Source: Folioceros fuciformis
Lineage: Eukaryota
Direction of reading: 5' to 3'
Assembly (NCBI GenBank): GCA_049999805.1
Contig: JBNGIO010006317.1
Coordinates: 598,493-661,661 of the forward strand
DNA length: 63,169 nt
Shown here: in pieces, positions 3,937 to 57,233 of the stretch
How the letters are laid out: every line of letters starts with the position of its first letter
Numbering within the stretch: position 1 is the first letter of the stretch
The notes under the pieces: model-generated
What the model was told of the DNA's origin: nothing
What the model saw: only the letters and a program-made list of their open reading frames with translations
Database searches by the model: none
Position numbers and translations under genes: made by a program

Positions 3937-4204
3937 CGGAGATTGGTACGTTTTCTTTTTTAAGAATGTGTAGCCCTTCAGCGCGCGGTCACGACCTACG
4001 GAATGTCACACGCGAAAGCAACTTCCTAACTGTCACCATCTTAGTTGCCAAGCGCGAGACACTTGGAACTTAAAATTGACTTCGGGACACGCGAGTAGTG
4101 CAGAACTTGCTGAAGCGTACTGTTACGAGCGCTCTACGTGTTTGAACTCTGCATGCCGTGTTGTGCAGGTGAGCGGCACATGAATCTCTAACTGCGACCG
4201 GAGT

Positions 4205-6268
4205 ATGGCCACATTATGGCAACCGGATCCGTTGCGGATCCAGCAAAGTGGTGTGTGTACAGGGATTTCGAGGAGCTCCCGCGCACCTAGTCTCAGGGCA
4301 GCCCCCAGCAAACAAAGCAGTCAGGTGCAACATTGTAATTGGCCCTGGTCATCGGAAGAAACGTGGGGGTGGAGATGGATTTTCCAGAGATGATTGTTAC
4401 CAGGAGCAGGAGCACTTGTGGCAACAATTTTTTCTGGACCCTACCATGTGGTGGGACGACAGACGAGGTAACGGCTGTAACGTTGAGCGCAATATGCCAG
4501 CAGGGGAAGCTTTCTCAGGCCGTTGAAGCCCTGGAATCTATGGCGCAGACAGGGTCTGGCATTTCTCAGTCCCTGTTGTACACTGTAGTAAAACTGTGTG
4601 CAGCGGAGAAGGATTTGGTTGTGGGGCGACGAGTGCATGATTTCACTGTGAAACTGGGGTACGAGTCGAATGCATACTTGGAGAACCATATCTTGCGCAT
4701 GTATGCATGTGGAGGGAGGCTACAGGAGGCTATGGATGTGTTCACCAGGGTGGCCAAACCAGATGCCTTCATGTGGTCTTCCATAATTTCTGCATACGCT
4801 AAGCATGGGAAACCTATTGAGGCCGTACAACTGTACCATAGAATGCGTCGATCAGGAGTGAAGGCGGATACTCACGTCTTTGTAGCTTCCCTGCAAGCTT
4901 GTGCACTTGCTGCTGATTTGGAATGGCAGAAAAGTGCCCTGTGATGTGGTACAGAGTGGCATTTCTACTGACTTGTTTGTTGGCAAGTGCCTTGTGGACA
5001 TGTATGCAAAATGTGGGGAACTCAAAGCTGCACTCCAGGTTTTTGACAGCATGACCACCAAGGACGTGGTGACATGGAATGCCGTCATTGCGGGGTACGT
5101 GAAATGTGGTGAACTGAAGGTTGCACGTCAGGTTTTCGATAGCATTGCCACGAAGGATTTGGTAACATGGAATACCATTATTGCTGGTTATGCAAAATGT
5201 GGTAAACCTTACAGAAGGGCAGGCAACTGCATCTACAGATTGAGGGAAGAGGACTGCTGGATGATGTAGTGCTGGGCAACTGCCTCGTGGACATGGATGC
5301 AATATGTGGTGAACTGGAAGCTGCACGCCAGGTTTTTGACAGGATGATGATAAAGGATGTGGTAACATGGATGTCCTTGATATTTGGGTACGGTACTTGT
5401 GATGAAGGTCACAAGGCCCTGGCCTGTTTTGAGGAGATGGTAGCTACTGGCTTTCAGCCTAATGATGCTACTTTTACTTGCCTCTTAGCAGCATGCAGTC
5501 ACGAGGGACTGGCGCACGAGGGTCGCAAGCATGATTCCATGGCTGAACATGGCATCAAGCCTACCATTGAGCGCTACACCTGCATGATTGACCTTCTCGG
5601 GCGTGCAGGCCATTTAGATGGAAGCAGAGAAGAGGCTGTTGTCATGTGAGGGCCAAAGAGATGTCGTGGGATTGATGACCTTGTTAAATGCCTGCAAAAA
5701 TCACGGAGATGTAGAGACGGCAAGGTGGTGTTATGAAAGCATTGTTAGGCTGGACCCCCAGCAGGCGCATTCCTACGTGCTCATGGCCAACGCCTACGCA
5801 GATGCAGGGAGGTGGACCGACGTTGAGCGCATTGGAACACAAAGAAGGTCGGCAGGAGCTAACAAGAAAACTGCAGTGGCAACCACTGAGGTGAATCAGC
5901 GGGTGCATAGGTTTGTGGTGGGACAAAGTAGAGAGGATATTGCGCTTAAGGTAGAGAACATGAATGCACGCGTGACGCAGGAAGGGGGCCACGTCCCTCA
6001 CACAAAGCTGGTGTTGAAGCCAATTTGTGAGAAGGAAAAGGAAGACTCTCTTTGCGGGCATGCTGAGAAGCTGGCTCTGGCTTTTGGTCTTTTGAACACT
6101 CCGAGTGGGACTCCTCTGGTGGTAATTAAGAATCTGCGCATGTGCAGTGACTGCCACAGTTCCACAGAGATCCTGTGAAGGCTTGAGCAGAGAAACATTG
6201 TTGTGAGAGATGGTTACCGCGTGCATCGATTTGCAGCTGGTCTTTGCAGTTGTAAGGGTCGACCGTGA
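4205..6268 (+). pseudogene. PLS-class PPR protein with E/E+ and DYW:KP (GRP-type) domain, frameshifted
   Basis: P/L/S motifs (LVDMYAKCGELKAALQVFDSM, DVVTWNAVIAGY) are split over ORFs 4339-4944, 4901-5269, 5269-5649 and 5618-6178. DYW part: KKTAVATTEV, LCGHAEKLALAFGLL, KNLRMCSDCH, in-frame TGA at 6176-6178, then RLEQRNIVVRDGYRVHRFAAGLCSCKGRP-stop (6266-6268). Confidence 0.9.
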
Positions 6269-22935: not shown

Positions 22936-25868
22936 TCACGGCTGACCCTGACAACTCCAGTTACCAGCTGCGAATCGATGCATAAGGTAGCCATTCCGTA
23001 CAGCAATGTTTCTCTTTTCAACCCTTGACATTAACTCGGTGGAACTGTATCAGTCGCTGAACAAGCGCAGGTGTGCCACTTGGACTGTTCAAAAGGCCAT
23101 AACCCAGAGCTAGCTTCTCGGTATGCCCACAAAGCAGATCTTCCTTTTCCAGCAGAGGTGTGCCACTCGGACTGCTCAAAAGGCCAGAGATAGCTTCTCG
23201 GCATGCCCACAAAGCAGATGTTCCTTTCCCTTCTCACTCAGTGCCTTCAACACCAGCTTTGTGTCTCGCACCTGGCCCCCTTCCTGCTTGAGAAGGTGGA
23301 GTGCATTTGTGCTCTCTACCTTTAAGGCGATATCATCTGTTTACTTCCACCACAAAGGTAGGTACCTGCTTCGTTACCTCGATGCCTGCGACTGCAGGTT
23401 TCTTTCTAGCTCCTGCTAGTGTTCTCTGTATTTCAATCCTATCTACATCCTCCCACCTGCCTGCATCTGCATAGGTACTGGCCATGAGCACGTATGCCGA
23501 CGCGCCCTGAGGGTCTAGTCTAACAACACTTTCGAAACACCGTCTCGCCCTTGCTTTGTCCCCGTGTCTTTTGCAGGTATTGAGCAAATATGTCAATCCT
23601 AGACCATTGCTTTGGCTCGCACATGATAACAGCATGTTCTGTGCCTCAAGTAAACGGCCTATACGCCAGAGAAGATCAATAATGCAATTCTAATGCTCAA
23701 CAACAATAGGTTTGGTACCGTGCCGTTCACCCATGGAATCAAAGACTTGCGACCCTCATTCACCAGTCCCTCGTGGCTGGATGCGGCTAAAAGACAAATA
23801 AACGTGACATCATTCGACTGAAATCCAGCAGCTAGGATCTCCTCTAAACAAGCTAGAGCGCTGTGACCATGGTCACTAGAACCGCAGCCAGGTATCAGAG
23901 CATTCCATATCACTACATTCTTTACGGCCAGGTTGTCAATAACCGCCCATGCATCTTCCAGTTCACCACATTTCGCATACATGTGCACCAAACCAGTGCC
24001 CAGCACTATGTTATCTGACTCCCCTCGTTCCACAATCTGTGAGTGCAGCTGCCTGCCCATCTGTAGGGCACAGACGCTTGCACATGCCTTCAGGAGGCAA
24101 GCAAAAGAAAGCTGGTCAGCGACAACCATACCCTGCTGCACCATTTGTCCATACAGAACCAGTGCTTATTGACGCAGCTCATGATTTGCATACCCAGCAA
24201 TTAGGGATGTCATGTCACCAGAGTCTTTGTGGTCAAGCTGTCAGACACACTGCGAGCATGTTCCACTTCGCCACATTTCGCCTACATGTCCACCAAACAG
24301 TTGCCCACCAGTATTTCATCTAGCACACCTCTATCCACAATGTCTGTATGCAGCTGGCTGTCCTCCTGTATGTAACGTGCACTCACACAGACTATCAGAA
24401 TGCAGGCGAACGTAAAATGGTCAGCCACAATCAGGTCCTCGTGCTTCATTTTTCCACAAAGGAGGAGAGCTTCTTGACTGAACCCATGATTTGCATATCC
24501 AGCAATCAGAGCCGTCCGTGTAACCACATTTTTTGTGGCCAAGCTGTCAAAACTGCACGTGCATCGTCCAGTTCACCACATTTTGCATACGTGTCCACGA
24601 GGATGGTGCCCACCAATATGTCATCTACCAGTCCTCCTTTGACAATCTGTACGTGCAGCTCCCTGCACTTCTGTAAGGCACCAGCGCTTGCGCAGGCCTT
24701 CAGGAGGAAACCCAGGGTGACCTGGTCAGCCAAAATCAAGCCTCCTGCTCCATTTCTCCACTCAGAACAAACGCCTCCTCATTGTACCCATGATTTGCAT
24801 GCCCAGCGATCAGGGCCGTCCATGTCACAACGGTTTTTGTGGCCAAACTGTCAAAGGCCCGGCGCTCGCCACATATTGCATACAAGTCCACAACGCAGGT
24901 GCCAGCAGACAAATCAAGAGCAAGGCCACTGTGCAACATATCAGAGTGGATTCTTCTTCCAGATTCCAAATCAGCGGCAAATGCACAAGCTTGAAATGCA
25001 GCTAGAAAGAGGAGAGCATCCGCCTTCACACCTTCGCAACGCCCCTTGAGGTACAGTTGTATGGCCTCCTTAGGTTTCCCATGTTTGTTATGTGTTGAGA
25101 TTATGGAAGACCACATGAAGGCATCTGGTTCTTGCACCCTGGTCAACACATCCACGGCGTCCTGTAGCATACCTCCACCTGCACACATGCGCAAAATATG
25201 GCTTCCCAGGTATGCATTAGACTCGTACCCCCAGTTCATGTACTCGTCGCCCAGCATCCAGATCCTTATTAGCTGCATGCACTTCTAGCACAGTGCAGAA
25301 CAGAGCCTGAAAAATAGGACTGTCTGCCTCCGCACAACGGATTTCAGAGCATCCACGGCCTCGATGAGTTTCCCCTGCTCCCAGAACATGCTCACGGTTA
25401 CAGCCGACACAACATCCATTCTCGATTCTGCAACTCTACCAAACTCAGGAATGTCCAGGGAGCTGGCCTTCAAAAGAGACGCACCATGACTTATCTCCCT
25501 GTCCAGAGAAACCAGCTGCTCATCCACCCAGCGTGCAGAAACTGGTTAAACAGAGGACCTCGCCGGAAGTCAGGCGAACGCGAGCTATTCTTATCTAGCC
25601 TGTTATCCCACCACATGGTCGGGTCGAAAAGAAAACGTTGCCATAAGAACTCCTCCTCCTGGAGACGCACATCGCTGGGCAACCCTTCCCCAGCCATATA
25701 TTTCCTAGAAAGTGCTGGACTCCTTACACTGCTGCTGCAACTAAAGGCCATGTTGTCTGCCAGGGTTTGACTCCCAGAGCTGAGGTGAGATGGAGGTACT
25801 CGGAAGACTCCTTTACAGTAACCCATTTGGTCGGACCACGACGGACCTGGTTGCCACGCAGTGGCCAT
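22936..25868 (-). pseudogene. PLS-class PPR protein with DYW:KP (GQP-ending) domain, heavily frameshifted
   Basis: Starts MATAWQPGP (paralogous to MATLWQPDP at 4205). PLS motifs are spread over five or more ORFs; RKKPAVAGIEV; CGHAEKL and CGHTEKLALGYGLL; CxxC region damaged (SD*Y); ends RNIAVRNGYLMHRFAAGNWSCQGQP-stop (22936). Confidence 0.9.
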
Positions 25869-26233
25869 CCTGCGGGCACCGCTCTCTCGAAGATCGTAGG
25901 CGAAGAACATCAAAATTTGCGAACTCCTGGAGGAAGACACGTGAGGAGCATGTTATTTGTTCTCCGTCTCCCTTTCGGAAATTTCGCCTTCGCCATTGAT
26001 CTCGAACGAAGAACCACTATCGACAGGCTTCGCTTCCCGTCGTCTCTTCCAATACACTTCTGCAATCCTCCGTATCTATTACTCACAGTCAAGTGCTCAA
26101 TGCAGGGCACCAGACATTGAGTCATGTGATAGTCGTATATTTGCATGAAAAAGTAACCATAGTTGACGCCAGGGACCTGCACCTGGGTAAGCATGCAGAC
26201 CGGAGTAGGAGATGGAAACGCACGCGTATAGCA

Positions 26234-29200
26234 ATGGCAGCTCGAGCCGCGGCTTTGTCGTCTGTGTCGCGTCGAGCTCTTACGGTTCCTATCAGGGTAG
26301 TGACGTCGACGCATTGTTTGTCATCGGGTTGCCCTCCGTGCGCAGCCTCGACGTCCTCATCCGCCTCCGCCTCTGTGACATCGCGGGGGCTGCGGCGCTC
26401 GTACAAGTTGCTCGGCAGGCGAGGAGTGAGCACCTGTTCTGGGGGAGGTATGTTTAAGGTTGTCAACAGCGCGTCGCGGGTAGAGGCGGGAGGCCCGCCC
26501 GTGGTGACGGAGAAGGAGAAGGAGGTGGAGGTGTCGGCACTTGCAACTGAGGCGGTGGGAGAGCCGTCTCCCGTCGGGCTCACCAGACCGTTCACTCGCT
26601 CGTTCCCCGAGGTGAGCGGGTTTGGATAGTTCGCAGCTTTGCTGCTTTTCGGTTGGGATGGTAGTAAGCAATTTGGGACTTTCTGGGGCTCTGGGTCTAC
26701 AGGTGGTGGTGGGCATTAAGTCTATCGATGCAACCGAGTGGAAGGGGGATGTGCTGGCTCTCGGGGTTTTTGAAGGGGAGCTTGAGACCGATGAAGGGGG
26801 CGCATTCAAGAACAGTGCGTTGCAGAAGTTGGATGGATTTCTGGGTGGAGTCTTAACTGATCTTGCCAAGGAGGAAGATTTATCCGGCAAGTCTGGTTCA
26901 TCTGCGTTCGTGAGGCTCTCGGGCTATGGGTTCAAGAAAGTTGGTCTAGTTGGGCTGGGGAAGGTGGAGGATGCCAAGACTTCCACATGGAAAGGATTTG
27001 GAGAGGCTATTGCTTCTGTGACTAAGACGAAGTCTTCAGTGGCTGCTGCTATCCCTTCTGCCAAGGAGTTATCGGAGGATGTGCAGGTTGCGGCCGCAGC
27101 AGCTATCGTGTCAGGTAGGTGTGTGTAGCTCGCCTGGCTTGGAGGAGGTAGCCTGTTGTTTGCTGTATTGCTGCTATAATGTGGGTGTGCTGGTTCTGAG
27201 CAGGGTTACTTTTGGAGCAATTCAATGACACCAGATTCAAGACGGAGTCCAAGGATCCCCCTGCCATTACGCTGGATATTCTTGGTGGTGGGGATGAGAA
27301 GGCCTTTGCACATAAGTTGCTGCAGGTAACGAGCTCCGCCAATGGTGTGGTGCTGGCTAAACAGCTGGTGAATGCACCAGCAAATGTCTTAACTCCTGGT
27401 ATGTGCTGCTTACTATGTCCGACATGCTCCTGCCAAGATTTCAGTGCAACATTTATCTGACCGCGATTGCTTGCGGCTGAATCCCCAATTGCGATTATAT
27501 CCTCCAGCGGTACTTGCAGAGGAAGCCAAGAAGATTGGTGCGGCGCATCCTGACGTGTTGACAGTCAAAGTCTTGGATGAAACAGAATGCACCAAGTTGA
27601 AAATGGGTGCATATTTAGGGGTCGCCGCTGGTTCTGAAAACCCTCCTGCTTTCATCCATATACAGTACAGACCGGAAGGAGCTATCCATACTAAGTTGGC
27701 GATTGTTGGGAAAGGTTTGACATTTGACAGGTGGGCATGTTTCGTTCCCAGGTGGTCCAATTGTATTAATGTTTTTCTGTATTTTTTCACTCCACCTGAT
27801 CGTTGATTGCCTCAATCGTTAGTGGTGGCTACAACCTGAAGACCGGTCCAGGCTCATTGATTGAGCTCATGAAGTTTGACATGGGGGGTGCAGCCGCTGC
27901 ATTTGGGGCTGCTAAGGCCATTGCAAGCATCCATCCTCCGGGTGTTGAGGTGAGGTTTTGACTTGGGTCATGTTTTACTCTTTGCCTTGCACATTTCTTT
28001 GGTTTCCGGATTCAGTTCTGTTGATGTGCACCTGCAGGTTAATTTTATTGTTGCTGCATGTGAGAACATGATAAGTGGTAAGGGGATGAGACCGGGTGAC
28101 ATTCTGACTGCTTCAAATGGCAAGACCATTGAGGTAAGGGATTCAGAACGTGAGAGTTTGTTGGTGTATTTCCTGGGGAACGCACTCTTACCGTGCTTTT
28201 AACTTGCTTTTCAGGTGAACAACACAGATGCTGAAGGTCGTCTGACTTTGGCCGATGCTCTTGTGTATGCCACCGGTTTAGGAGTTGACAAGGTGTGCTA
28301 TCATTATGCAGTTGGAAATCTCATATGTTGTTGTAATCAGCCTGCTTCTTGCTGTCCATTTGATGCTTTGTATTGTATACAGTAGTCCTTTGACTTTCGC
28401 TCAATTGTTAACGCAATCCTCAGGTGGTTGATCTTGCTACGCTAACAGGGGCCTGCATTGTAGCTCTTGGTAGCAGCGTTGGAGGTACCCAGAAAAAGTT
28501 TCGTTTGCTGCATTGTTGTCCGTTATGGGTTAATGACTGCGGACTTTTCTGATACTGTACTGTGGACTGTGCAGGATTGTTCACGAAGCACGATGAACTT
28601 GCGGAGGAGCTAGTTACAGCATCTAAAGCAGCTGGAGAGAAGCTTTGGAGACTTCCAATGGAAGAGAGTTACTGGGAGGGCATGAAGTCTAACATTGCTG
28701 ACATGGTTAATACAGGGGGACGGTATGGCGGATCAATAACTGCTGCTCTGTTCCTGAGCCAGGTGCAGTGGACTCTCCTTTCGTTGGTTTGATCCGTTTA
28801 TTTGATAGGTAGGAAAGCCTCCAGAAAATTGTGGGATGATGTATGGTTTGGTTCTGGATTGAAAATCTGGAGGTCATGTCCGTTGATGAATTCTGTCTGG
28901 AATTATGGGCTTGGGTTTCTGTCATGCTGAAACCTTTTTGTGCTGTGATGATACCAAATGTTTCGGACTAGAGTTTCTGATCTGATCATCAGATCTGACG
29001 ATACGCTTTGGCTGTCTGAGCATAGCCGCCGTGTGACGTGGCTGTCTGGACCTTAATTTATGACTGGTAGGCTGAACTACCGTGCGATTGTGCTTATCTT
29101 CGTGTATTTGCTATCAATACAGTTTGTTGACAAGGATATTCCTTGGGCCCATTTGGACATTGCGGGGCCAGTGTGGAACGAGAAGAAAGGCGGGGGCACA

Positions 29201-29263
29201 GGTTTTGCTGTTGGCACCCTTGTGGAATGGGTTGTCAAGCAGTCATCGCCATCTACAAGCTGA
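26234..29263 (+). CDS. LAP: Leucyl aminopeptidase, M17 family, with Ser/Ala/Arg-rich transit peptide
   Basis: [98 protein letters not shown]; stop at 29261-29263. Confidence 0.96.
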
Positions 29264-29744
29264 GACTGGACTGCTATGTGGGGGACCTTGCGTTCTGTAA
29301 ATGGCATGTGGGTGAGGATGCAGGTGGGCCCTGCCCACATCACCACCTGCAAGTCCTAGTGTCATGAACATTCCGCTAAGAGAATTTCGTCCTGGTTTGC
29401 AGGTCCGATGATGGGTTTCGTCCAAAGTGAATGAACTGTACATACAGTCCGATTGTAGGCCTGTTTTTGTCCCCAACAACACGGATCGCAGTTTCTGCTG
29501 CGATTCCCAGTGTTGTCCATCACTACATTTCTACTTGTAAAGTAAGCGGAGATTGTATCCATACAACTCATCACGAAACGCATCTGGATCCTTCCGGAAC
29601 TTTCCTTTGTCACTTGATCGTGTCCAATGTGTGTGCACGGTAATTCTCTAGATGTGAATATGCACATTACACCCTGAGAATGCATTGACACTCCTACGTT
29701 GCTCCGAGGAATTCACTCCTGTCCCAGTTGTTAATTTTTGCGCC

Positions 29745-40658: not shown

Positions 40659-41589
40659 CCTTAGAGAAATCGACGCAGGCGGTGTGGCTGATTGAGATGC
40701 CTTGTATGTAGGCACCTGATGCGCTGCTTCGAAGTCTGCACCAGTTGATACCCCAGCGTGGTAGGCTTGACAGTTCACCCCACATCGATCACGCGATGTA
40801 GCATGCAGTGCCGTCCGCACTACTCAGATGCTGTCTGTATTGGGACTCTTCCATGCCATGATCGCACTGTGCCGTTAAAGCTGCGGAGATATTCACTAAC
40901 CACGTGAAGAAATTAGGATGAGTGTGGCATCAAACTTCTGCGTGCCATGCGAAGTCGACTGCCGTACACAAAGGTGGTTCACCAAGCCAGTCGACACTAT
41001 ACGTGCGCTAGGCAGAATTCGCACCTTGGTGTGGAGCTGGGATGACAAGTGTCCTAACCAGCGACACCAGACCACAAACAGGCAACAAGCCGAGTCGAGT
41101 CGAGTGGAGATCGGTAAAGCTGGTTCTGGCAGGTGAGCAGGGTCGGAAATGGTCTTCGGGTGAAGCAACACAAAGAGTCGAGCACTTCCACGTCCCAGAA
41201 AGCTAAATGTAGGTTGAGGCGGAATTTCCAACCATGGTCGTCGCCAGGAGTCTTTTCCAGCAATGGTCGGCCAGGAGCTGGAGTACTTGTGGCAACAACG
41301 TTATTTGTTCCTGACCATGTAGTGGGACAACAGACGAAGTAAGAGTTGCCGATCACCTGACTTCCTGCGTAAGGGCTACGGCGAGGTGCTGTGGTCAAAC
41401 AAGTTAAGGCCAGCTTGGCTTGATGAGCAGACCAGTTTGCTTGGCTATCCAGATGGGTCGTGTTGCCTCTTTTTCCAAGTCCACCTCTTCGAATAGGCCC
41501 GAACCTGGCAGGCGTGCAGGAGTCGGAAAAGGGCTTCGTTACGGCTGTAACCGTAAGCACGTTATGTGATCAGGGAAGCTTCGTGAGGC

Positions 41590-41820
41590 GGTGACGTTGA
41601 ATGCACTGAATTCTAGATATGCTGATGAGCAAGGTCTGGGACACGAGGCACTTGCTCTGTATGGACAGATGGAATAGGAGATCCAGATGATTTTGGCTCA
41701 CCATGTTACATTTTCCTGCCTTTTAAGGGCCTGCTCCTACACTGCTGCTTTACAGAAAGGCAGGCAGCTGCACACATTGATTGTGGAAAGAGGCCTAGGA
41801 CTGCTGGATGATGTAATACA
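41590..41820 (+). pseudogene. Isolated PLS-PPR fragment (one P and one L motif)
   Basis: Translates VTLNALNSRYADEQGLGHEALALYGQME*EIQMILAHHVTFSCLLRACSYTAALQKGRQLHTLIVERGL, similar to the motifs at 23950-24750. Confidence 0.75.
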
Positions 41821-55155: not shown

Positions 55156-57233
55156 TTAATGGCGGTGAATCCGGTATGATGTGTAAGCGCTGTCGTCTCC
55201 AGCCAGGGCTTCTCTTAGCAGCTGCAAAATCCGGCCCTCTCCTGGCAGTGCTTTGGAGCCGGTGTTGCCTAGCCGTCTTGCAAGTAGTGCGTACTCGTCT
55301 TGTGGATCACTCTGATCCACAGCTTCATCTTCCGTCTCAGAGGGCTGTACTTGCTCTACGGTTATCACCAACGATCCGATGCTTGAGAGCATACCGTTGT
55401 CCAGTGTCATGAGGTTTAGCTGCACCCCGTTGGGCAGAGCATCTGCACGGAAAGGCATTGGCAGTGGTAATTCGCTGGATGATGCAAATGTCAAAGCCCA
55501 GTCCTGTACAGTGGCAACCACCTGCAAAAAAGACCGTATCCGACTGGTGAGTGTTGAGCATCTTTTCCATTCCGTGAAATGGTGTGAAAGAATTGGAAGC
55601 AACCTTCATGATGAGCTCACCTTGGAGACATCGTCCGAAATTACAGGGATGTGTAAGAGTTCAGAGGTGCTTGCACGACCGAACATCTTTTTCCAGGGTG
55701 AGCTCTCGTGTTTGGATTTGCCTTTGGAGCCAGAAGGTCGTTGAGACGGTGTGGTCCACGACCAAAACCGCCAGAAGGCCCCTGCACGCATTTTCAGATC
55801 TGCATCCTGTCGAGCTTTCTGCTGAGCCGGTGTCTCTTTTCCTGCTGCTGAGCCTGACATGGCAAGCAAGAAGGATGAGAAACATGAGCCATGGACAAGT
55901 GAACTTCTAGAAGCTCCTTTCATGCTTGATGTGCAAACTCACGATGTAGGGCAGCTTCAGCCTGATCCTTCATTCTGCGCTGGAATGCCCGTGCTGNNNN
56001 NNNNNNNNNNNNNNNNNNNNNNNNNNNNNNNNNNNNNNNNNNNNNNNNNNNNNNNNNNNNNNNNNNNNNNNNNNNNNNNNNNNNNNNNNNNNNNNNTACT
56101 CAAGAACTGGCAGGTCTTCCTTCTCCACATAATGGATGCAGTTCACAGGGCAGGCATCGATCGCAATCTGACACAGCGAGGGCCACTCGTGAGTGGCATC
56201 TTTGCAACGAGCAGCCCAACCTCTATAACAAAAACAATGTGTTCAGGACACTCCAATCACCTTGATTCGCTGGTCAGGGTCTCCCCATTGAGTTCTCACA
56301 CGCGCAGACCCCCCTGACTCATCCATGCCAAACGTATTTCTCGCCACGAAAACACATTCCCTACAACCTGCAAGACTGTGCTGTTTACCCAATCTGCCCA
56401 ACACCAAGCTGCCGCAGCTGGAATTGCCCAAAACTAATGCACAAAACACATACCAACACAAGCATTCTCATCAACAAAAATGCCCTGCGGCCTGTCTGGC
56501 CCCTGCCATGTGCTGTACGGCATGCCTGTAAATGAGCCGTGCCCACACGCTCGGATGACCGTCTTGTAGGAATGAGCAGCATCGTACGCCGCTCTGCGAT
56601 CCCCATCCATCAGCGTCTCGTAGGCTTCATTGACCAAAAGTGCAATAGCATGGCCCTGGGAGAAGCACCAACCGTCACGAAATCAAAATCCCTTCCTCCC
56701 TCATCACAACCGGCTGTCACATTCACACCACCAAACAACATGACGAATGTAAAGCTCCTCTGACAACCTCCAAACCAGCGACATCAGGATGGTACTTCTT
56801 CTGCAAAAGCCTGTACGCCTTCCGAATATCCGCAGACGAGGCATCAATTGCAACACCGAGCAGTTCATAGTGATCCTGTTGATGACTCGCAATCTGAGAC
56901 CCAATCCCCCGTCTCTCCCCTGCCGCCGCACACCTAGTGAAATAAACGAGATGCCTGGATGTCGTCAAATAACTACTCCTGCAAAATCCCACACCAAGCC
57001 CGCGGATCAACACTCCAGTCCGCCTCCCCCTCGTCTCGCAAGATCTTCCAAACGGCACAACCAACCCACCTAAGCTCATCGCGCGCGTCCTTTGTTCCCA
57101 TCGAGTGATGAATCAAAGACACCACTCGAAGGCTCTTGGGACCGAGCAGACAAAAACTCCTGCTACCTCCCGTGTGCACATTCGGAGCACCAGACGAGAG
57201 AGGCCCCACAGACATCCTTCCTGCCAGCTCCAT
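55156..57233 (-). CDS. Chloroplast DnaJ-ferredoxin protein (DJC76/CDJ3-5-like), interrupted by assembly gap
   Basis: J domain DHYELLGV..IRKAYRLLQKKYHPD..VNEAYETL; Fer4-like IFVDENACVGCRECV..QWGD..IAIDACPVNCIHYV; C-terminal ETPAQQKAR and FASSSELPLPMPFR. Confidence 0.9.
55997..56096. other. Assembly gap (100 N)
   Basis: Run of exactly 100 n characters. Confidence 1.

Follow-up and report, generated by a model that had tools for sequence, protein, structure and literature searches.

Do some plant RNA editing factors carry a piece of a single-stranded DNA-binding protein? This question is raised by a locus of Folioceros fuciformis. It lies in a stretch of 63,169 nucleotides (nt) of contig JBNGIO010006317.1 (assembly GCA_049999805.1, positions 598,493 to 661,661), which we call the window. 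Here, a decayed gene for a pentatricopeptide repeat (PPR) protein of the PLS class carries, ahead of its repeats, the PDF motif of the OSB proteins, a group that binds single-stranded DNA in organelles. We call this gene copy B. Our answer to the question is a qualified yes. With a probability of roughly three in four, copy B is a dead paralogue of a real family: PLS-class PPR editing factors with one to three copies of a PDF motif of about 52 amino acids (aa) between the presequence and the first PPR.

The motif in copy B is homologous to the OSB motif

The motif is read on the minus strand in three frames. Positions 25563-25658 translate as EEEFLWQRFLFDPTMWWDNRLDKNSSRSPDFR (EEEFLW...PDFR). 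After a shift of one base, the second frame (25547-25561) reads EVLCL. After another shift of one base, the third frame (25501-25545) reads PVSARWVDEQLVSLD, which includes RWVDEQLVSLD at 25501-25533. The whole motif of about 52 aa is present, split by two frame changes. At the first break about four codons are gone compared to intact relatives, for example PDFRHKSSGEVLWLDS in P0004, one of the PPR proteins described below.

To which proteins is this motif related? We compared the 153-aa N-terminal open reading frame (ORF) of copy B with 1.84e9 representative proteins using phmmer. There were 57 matches with E<=1e-3, ten of them with E<=1e-10, the best at 1.1e-14. All 57 are confined to query residues ~74-150, which is the motif, and most contain two to nine matched stretches. 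A Pfam scan found the SSB OB fold (PF00436) in 18 of these proteins, PPR families in two (P0004 and P0021) and a kinesin motor in one (P0044). None of these families was found at E<=0.001 in the other 36, which gave no Pfam match or isolated sub-threshold ones. The proteins with an OB fold carry between one and 13 copies of the motif at their C-terminus.

We then asked how well the motif can be recognised from OSB proteins only. A hidden Markov model (HMM) was built from 56 PDF instances of the 18 proteins with PF00436, and was run on all 2663 six-frame ORF pieces of the window. Three sites stand out: the piece of copy B (25494-25952, minus strand, E = 6.7e-10) and two pieces on the plus strand, at 41323-41493 (copy C, E = 1.6e-8) and at 4173-4523 (copy A, E = 8.3e-6). 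The next-best ORF piece has an E-value of 0.34. The eponymous core of the motif is also preserved, with WWDNR and PDF in copy B, WDNR after a stop and PDF in copy C, and WWDDR in copy A, where the PDF part is deleted.

An OSB-type PDF motif in this place, with this reading, is what the earlier note on this DNA had claimed, and a model of OSB motifs was among the checks it had suggested. Both the phmmer and the HMM results bear the claim out. Short as the motif is, and although Pfam does not see it, a chance likeness is refuted by the phmmer E-value of 1.1e-14 in a library of 1.84e9 proteins and by an HMM for which the E-values of three sites lie over four orders of magnitude below those of the 2660 other ORF pieces; we regard it as next to impossible. 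Homology is thus established: the stretch and the PDF motif of OSB proteins share a common origin.

The gene itself is not an OSB gene. Pfam finds no family on the 153-aa N-terminal ORF, hence there is no OB fold ahead of the motif. A homologue search for longer proteins with the same ORF gave nothing with E<=1e-3 among 437 candidates, which is weak evidence.

Copy B is a broken editing factor gene

What follows the motif? The earlier note read a PLS-PPR-DYW:KP gene, and the Pfam matches agree with it. Downstream of the motif, the ORF pieces of copy B match the families PF13041, PF01535, PF12854 and PF20431, with PPR and E motif among the matches. DYW_deaminase (PF14432) is found on two pieces (E = 2.1e-6 and 1.3e-4). 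The C-terminal end reads ...HRFAAGNWSCQGQP, followed by a stop. DYW:KP domains differ from canonical DYW domains in an altered PG box, in HAE for HSE and in a different last triplet (PMC9478123). The hornwort DYW:KP proteins are described there as two subgroups, DRH and GRP, named by the last triplet, with GRP under-represented in transcriptomes. By its motifs (KKPAVAG, CGHAEKL and GQP), copy B is a broken GRP-type DYW:KP gene. A gene of this type makes a hornwort the probable source of the window.

Among intact proteins the closest that we found is P0063 (950 aa), which comes from a Logan assembly. Its PDF motif (residues 62-114) is followed by PLS repeats, the E motif and a full DYW_deaminase domain (858-948). 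Its deaminase contains KKPAMAG and CGHAEKLA and ends in CSCGGRP, and thus is a DYW:KP domain of the GRP type. In a tblastn chain, copy B aligns with residues 109-905 of P0063 in six colinear matches, interrupted by five frame changes and six in-frame stops. The break inside the motif comes in addition to these five frame changes. The CxxC of the zinc site is ruined: copy B reads LRLFSD(stop)Y where copy A has LRMCSDCH and P0063 has LRMCMDCH, so that one cysteine has become a stop. Furthermore, part of the deaminase is duplicated, with the repeated peptide LCGH.EKL..GLL..PSGTP. Tandem Repeats Finder missed this duplication; a general repeat search found it.

Could copy B nevertheless be a working gene, whose breaks stem from faulty assembly or from small introns? 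Nothing speaks for this beyond the errors that assemblies generally contain. Contigs from three sequencing runs cover the motif with 0 differences (X1 at 25102-26000, X2 at 25103-25599 and X3 at 25484-26000). Runs X1 and X2 are from one sample, possibly that of the assembly, and X3 is from a separate study. Contigs from two studies hence agree letter for letter across the motif breaks, and therefore these breaks are not assembly errors. The assembly is also sound here, as the exons of the M17 aminopeptidase gene next door are open and match Pfam families cleanly. Homology to P0063 continues through the breaks without gaps of intron size. The six stops, the lost cysteine and the duplication also speak against a working gene. 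We therefore consider this very unlikely. Copy B is an inert pseudogene.

Two observations on the contigs stand by themselves. The summed contig depth exceeds that of the flanks over 25500-25603, and a second X3 contig covers 25567-25625 with five differences; this fits paralogues and gives no copy number. A further X3 contig of 2508 nt, which covers the PDF region and continues past 26000 toward the aminopeptidase gene, has a word depth of 174.8; for the remaining X3 contigs on the pseudogene the depth is only 9-27. That X3 is RNA is a guess.

Two more decayed copies lie in the window

A tblastn search of the window with P0063 yields two further decayed members of the family, both on the plus strand: copy A (4404-6265) and copy C (41281-41797). 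Copy A contains three frame changes and one stop, and the counterpart of residues ~388-596 of P0063 is missing. Its DYW region is 63% identical to that of P0063, has CGHAEKLA and ends in GRP. Copy C consists of the motif and a short PPR remnant; the same search finds nothing more downstream of this remnant. It has two stops overall in addition to the truncation. The DNA likeness among the copies of the window is 66-78%, hence they are old paralogues and not recent duplicates. All three are pseudogenes (Table 1).

Table 1. Coordinates of the three PDF-PPR copies and their parts, in positions of the window.
Feature	Positions	Strand	Evidence or remark
Copy A, first half of PDF motif (EQEHLWQQFFLDPTMWWDDRRG), rest deleted	4404..4469	+	OSB-only HMM, E 8.3e-6
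Copy A, decayed PLS-E-DYW:KP body, end CSCKGRP and stop	4456..6268	+	tblastn to P0063
Copy B, decayed DYW:KP deaminase; KKPAVAG and CGHAEKL kept; end CQGQP and stop	22936..23340	-	Pfam, tblastn
Copy B, direct duplication of ~85 nt in DYW domain	23064..23230	-	units 23064-23150 and 23151-23230, 89-91% alike, spacing 80 and 87
Copy B, decayed PLS-type PPR array and E motif	23333..25500	-	Pfam PPR, PPR_2, E_motif; tblastn chain to P0063
Copy B, PDF motif in three frame pieces	25501..25658	-	phmmer, OSB-only HMM; X1, X2 and X3 contigs with 0 differences
Copy B, open frame upstream of motif, putative presequence remnant; in-frame ATGs 25866-25868 and 25749-25751	25659..25868	-	likeness to copy A in DNA reaches back no farther than ~37 nt ahead of the motif
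Copy C, PDF motif almost complete, stop replaces first W of WWDNR	41281..41442	+	OSB-only HMM, E 1.6e-8
Copy C, short PPR remnant of ~72 aa, one stop	41582..41797	+	tblastn to P0063

Intact relatives form a wider family

Is P0063 an isolated case? Of 731 candidates compared with the N-terminal 300 residues of P0004, seven proteins reach E<=1e-3. Six of these belong to the PPR proteins and have PDF motifs at the N-terminus: P0004, P0058 (EukProt), P0059 (Adiantum capillus-veneris), P0061 (A. nelumboides), and P0060 and P0062 (both Logan). All six stop after the E motif, without a DYW domain. The seventh, P0016 (Kingdonia uniflora, 1160 aa), is not a PPR protein; its PDF motifs number 13, and close to the C-terminus there is a weak match to the OB fold. 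Further members are P0021 of A. capillus-veneris, with two PDF motifs and PPRs, and P0056, a transcript fragment of Pteridium aquilinum. The records of P0056 and P0058 bear transcript-style names. A third type of C-terminus is found in P0070 (692 aa), where the PDF motif, PLS repeats and E motif are followed by the start of a canonical DYW domain (PG box, KKPGKAYIEV...SHP). Intact members thus differ at the C-terminus, which is of the E-only, the canonical DYW or the DYW:KP kind.

The OSB-only HMM recognises the PPR-linked motifs over positions 3-57 of its 58, with 61-79 bits. It gives no match on P0064, a PPR protein of Selaginella without a PDF motif. In P0063, P0004 and P0021 Pfam finds PPR families and no PF00436.

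Two of these proteins, P0004 (1371 aa) and P0058 (1374 aa), have three N-terminal PDF motifs and then a very long PLS array; they resemble fern PDF-PLS-E proteins. The number of PDF copies varies among PPR proteins as it does among OSBs. The motif also occurs in P0044 (Coptis chinensis, 1526 aa), where three copies precede the kinesin motor. The architectures of P0044 and P0016 are possibly gene-model chimeras or real expansions.

We also scanned metagenome contigs, using an alignment of 16 PPR-linked motifs as query. There were at least 601 pattern matches, 390 of which were confirmed by tblastn, and the best 80 loci were kept (L001-L080), on contigs that derive from plants. A PPR array lies directly downstream on the same strand in 59 of these loci, an OB fold lies upstream in four, and 17 have neither. 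At 98% identity, the 59 loci reduce to 43 distinct sequences. A single ORF holds the motif together with 100 aa or more of PPR in 43 of these 59 loci (31 distinct). The first PPR match starts close to the end of the motif (median distance 25 nt). The fusion of PDF motif and PLS repeats is, by this account, real and common.

Many metagenome copies are broken by frame changes or stops, and 12 groups of near-identical loci recur across contig sets.

Several points weigh against the proposed family. The share of 59 in 80 loci overstates the share of PPR proteins among all PDF motifs, since the query consisted of PPR-linked motifs. Among the 25 loci in which a DYW domain is seen as well, only two have a frame that stays open from a point ahead of the motif through to the last DYW (L001 with 875 aa and L021 with 872 aa). 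Many members may therefore be decayed elsewhere too, or the assemblies may be error-prone. Finally, a motif tree (126 instances, 53 columns, quick method) is mostly unresolved. The PPR label needs eight changes on it, of which the starred branches force at least three. The sole supported grouping is that of the three window copies (97 in the SH-like approximate likelihood ratio test, SH-aLRT). Hence the tree does not tell one fusion event from several.

The motif does not mark U-to-C editing

Does the motif belong to one kind of editing? The earlier note proposed a family of candidate U-to-C editing factors with an extra module. The family holds up, with P0063 as intact member and copies A and C next to copy B. 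The link to U-to-C editing does not. If the motif were a specific mark of U-to-C (DYW:KP) factors, tied to the reverse reaction, then it should be found with DYW:KP domains. This is true for the three window copies and P0063, when all of them are counted as GRP-type DYW:KP. In the fern PDF-PPR proteins, however, the E motif is the last domain, and a PG box (KKPGKAYIEV, SHP) is present in P0070. The comparison of DYW:KP with canonical DYW that the earlier note suggested also goes against its expectation: in the 25 metagenome loci where a DYW domain is seen, HAE and the GRP and DRH ends are all absent, and 18 of these loci end in DYW. Because the fusion occurs with E-only, canonical DYW and DYW:KP ends, the motif is not specific to U-to-C factors, and we hold it for highly improbable that it is such a mark. 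U-to-C activity itself is described for designer KP proteins only (PMC9478123).

A possible single-strand clamp

What might the PDF module do in an editing factor? Its sequence is well conserved. In the 16 PPR-linked motifs ten columns are invariant (W9, P16, W19, W20, K26, P32, D33, F34, W44 and W53, numbered along the P0063 stretch). AlphaFold2, given the P0063 stretch and the 16-row alignment, predicts a helix (2-14), two strands (19-21 and 34-36) and a second helix (53-65). The best model has a predicted local distance difference test score (pLDDT) of 90 and a predicted template modelling score (pTM) of 0.72; the remaining four models reach a pLDDT of only 61-74. A Foldseek search of the modelled module against the PDB gives no match at E<=0.001. 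With VIA-align against 48,161 chains the best Z is 3.9, and none reaches 5. A search of the ESM Atlas gives no usable match. This lack of a fold relative shows neither that the fold is novel nor that it is different.

We propose that in intact members the module would act as a clamp for single-stranded nucleic acid that does not depend on sequence. The N-terminal PPRs of a PPR protein face the 5' side of the bound RNA. Since few residues separate the module from PPR 1, its place on the RNA would be immediately 5' of the PPR footprint, upstream of the sequence that is recognised. Such a clamp would add affinity, or it would keep the site unfolded and open. It would be a built-in helper in lineages without MORF proteins, which are restricted to seed plants as described in PMC13386178. 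By analogy with the OSB proteins, in which the PDF motif of AtOSB1 suffices for binding single-stranded DNA (ssDNA; PMC6963530), we infer that a single-strand clamp next to the first PPR would be the most likely role of the module, although we put this forward tentatively and at less than even odds.

Two reports speak against an RNA clamp. OSB1 and OSB2 are described as preferring ssDNA over double-stranded DNA (dsDNA) or RNA (PMC4166229), which favours a DNA tether. The moss protein PPR56 edits in E. coli without its N-terminus (PMC10482289), and hence whatever N-terminal module PPR56 may have is dispensable for catalysis there.

The main rival to the clamp is thus a tether, which the earlier note had suggested. 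The module would keep the ssDNA preference of the OSB proteins and would hold the factor at nucleoids, for instance at transcription bubbles, R-loops or replication and recombination intermediates, so that editing would take place beside the template. Besides the preference of OSB1 and OSB2, the sufficiency of the PDF motif for ssDNA binding fits such a role, and the residues conserved in OSB motifs are retained in the PPR-linked ones. The motif, however, abuts the first PPR, with no long flexible linker between them. A tether is a possible role, which we nonetheless think rather unlikely. The present sequence evidence does not separate DNA binding from RNA binding.

A module that no longer binds nucleic acid is harder to defend. 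It would serve in contacts between proteins (oligomerisation or docking to OSB or nucleoid proteins), in folding or in import. AtOSB2 is described as a tetramer (PMC6963530), and the predicted small helix-strand-strand-helix unit has no solved relative, so that its surface may serve such contacts. The conserved positions, however, are mostly aromatic and basic (five W, F, K and R), as expected of proteins that bind by base stacking, and the ssDNA binding of OSB1 maps to the PDF motif. This role appears improbable to us.

Comparison with known proteins

The nearest known system is that of the OSB proteins themselves, AtOSB1-4 (Zaegel et al. 2006, as cited in PMC6963530 and PMC4166229). In both groups the PDF motif has about 50 aa, with W, P, WWD.R, K, PDF, W and W in the same positions, and in both it occurs in one to three copies. 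In OSB proteins, an OB fold is followed by one or several PDF motifs at the C-terminus (PMC6963530, PMC4166229). In the PDF-PPR proteins, by contrast, the motif is N-terminal, Pfam sees no OB fold, and a PLS-PPR array follows. Because it lacks the OB fold, the window gene is not an OSB.

The second system is that of the hornwort GRP-type DYW:KP proteins (Gerke et al. 2020 and Gutmann et al. 2020, as summarised in PMC9478123). They share with our copies the PLS repeats, the E motifs, KP(A) for PG, HAE for HSE and a last triplet of the GRP kind, which is GRP in copy A, GQP in copy B and GRP in P0063. They differ in the N-terminal PDF module, of which the accessible part of that summary makes no mention, and in that the window copies are broken.

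The combination of PPRs with other domains has precedents. Maize PPR4 and PpPPR_3 have an N-terminal RRM, and PPR-SMR and PPR-LAGLIDADG proteins are described as well (PMC9459714). Like PPR4-type proteins, the PDF-PPR proteins join a PPR tract to a second, general nucleic-acid-binding module, which in PPR4 is also N-terminal. PPR4-type proteins, however, belong to the P class and carry domains that Pfam can see, whereas PDF-PPR proteins are PLS-class editing factors with a motif that Pfam does not model. For Physcomitrium, the extra domains of PPR proteins given in the accessible part of PMC9459714 are RRM, LAGLIDADG, SMR, NYN, CBS and SAP; PDF is not among them.

A last comparison is one of function only. 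The MORF/RIP proteins of seed-plant editosomes raise the RNA binding of PLS-PPR factors, and the PDF module may by analogy be such a helper. Unlike the module, MORFs are separate proteins of an unrelated fold, and according to PMC13386178 they occur in seed plants only.

What the fusion would mean

In the usual picture, a PPR editing factor consists of targeting peptide, PPR tract and E or DYW end. For heterologous assays and for designer editors the N-terminus is routinely removed. A module that binds nucleic acid, conserved at this end in many genes of several seedless lineages, would add a part to the editing machinery. As Pfam has no model for the motif, the module is invisible to domain surveys.

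A literature search that left aside Gerke et al. 2020, Gutmann et al. 2020 and supplements found no description of a PDF motif joined to PPRs. The accessible text of a 2026 paper on OSB evolution (PMC13393729) contains neither PPR nor pentatricopeptide. Similarly, the accessible text of a kingdom-wide survey of editing factors and their domain fusions from the same year (PMC13386178) contains neither OSB nor single-stranded DNA. The PDF-PPR architecture is apparently both broad and undescribed.

The fusion gives a concrete hypothesis: editing without helpers of the MORF type, or editing placed near the template. In its widest and speculative form, a large overlooked class of PLS factors of seedless land plants (GRP-type DYW:KP, fern E-type and canonical DYW) would have recruited the OSB PDF module as an accessory domain needed for efficient editing. 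The module would act there either as an RNA clamp that replaces MORF or as a tether to nucleoid and transcription. We think it doubtful that the hypothesis holds in full. The module may also matter for engineered C-to-U and U-to-C editors.

Other features of the window

The aminopeptidase gene next to copy B is an intron-containing M17 leucyl aminopeptidase gene on the plus strand (26230-29300). Peptidase_M17_N and Peptidase_M17 are found on four exon ORFs, with the stretch NTDAEGRL. It lies head to head with the pseudogene, a few hundred bases apart. Farther along, at 55997-56096, the window contains a run of 100 N, which is an assembly gap.

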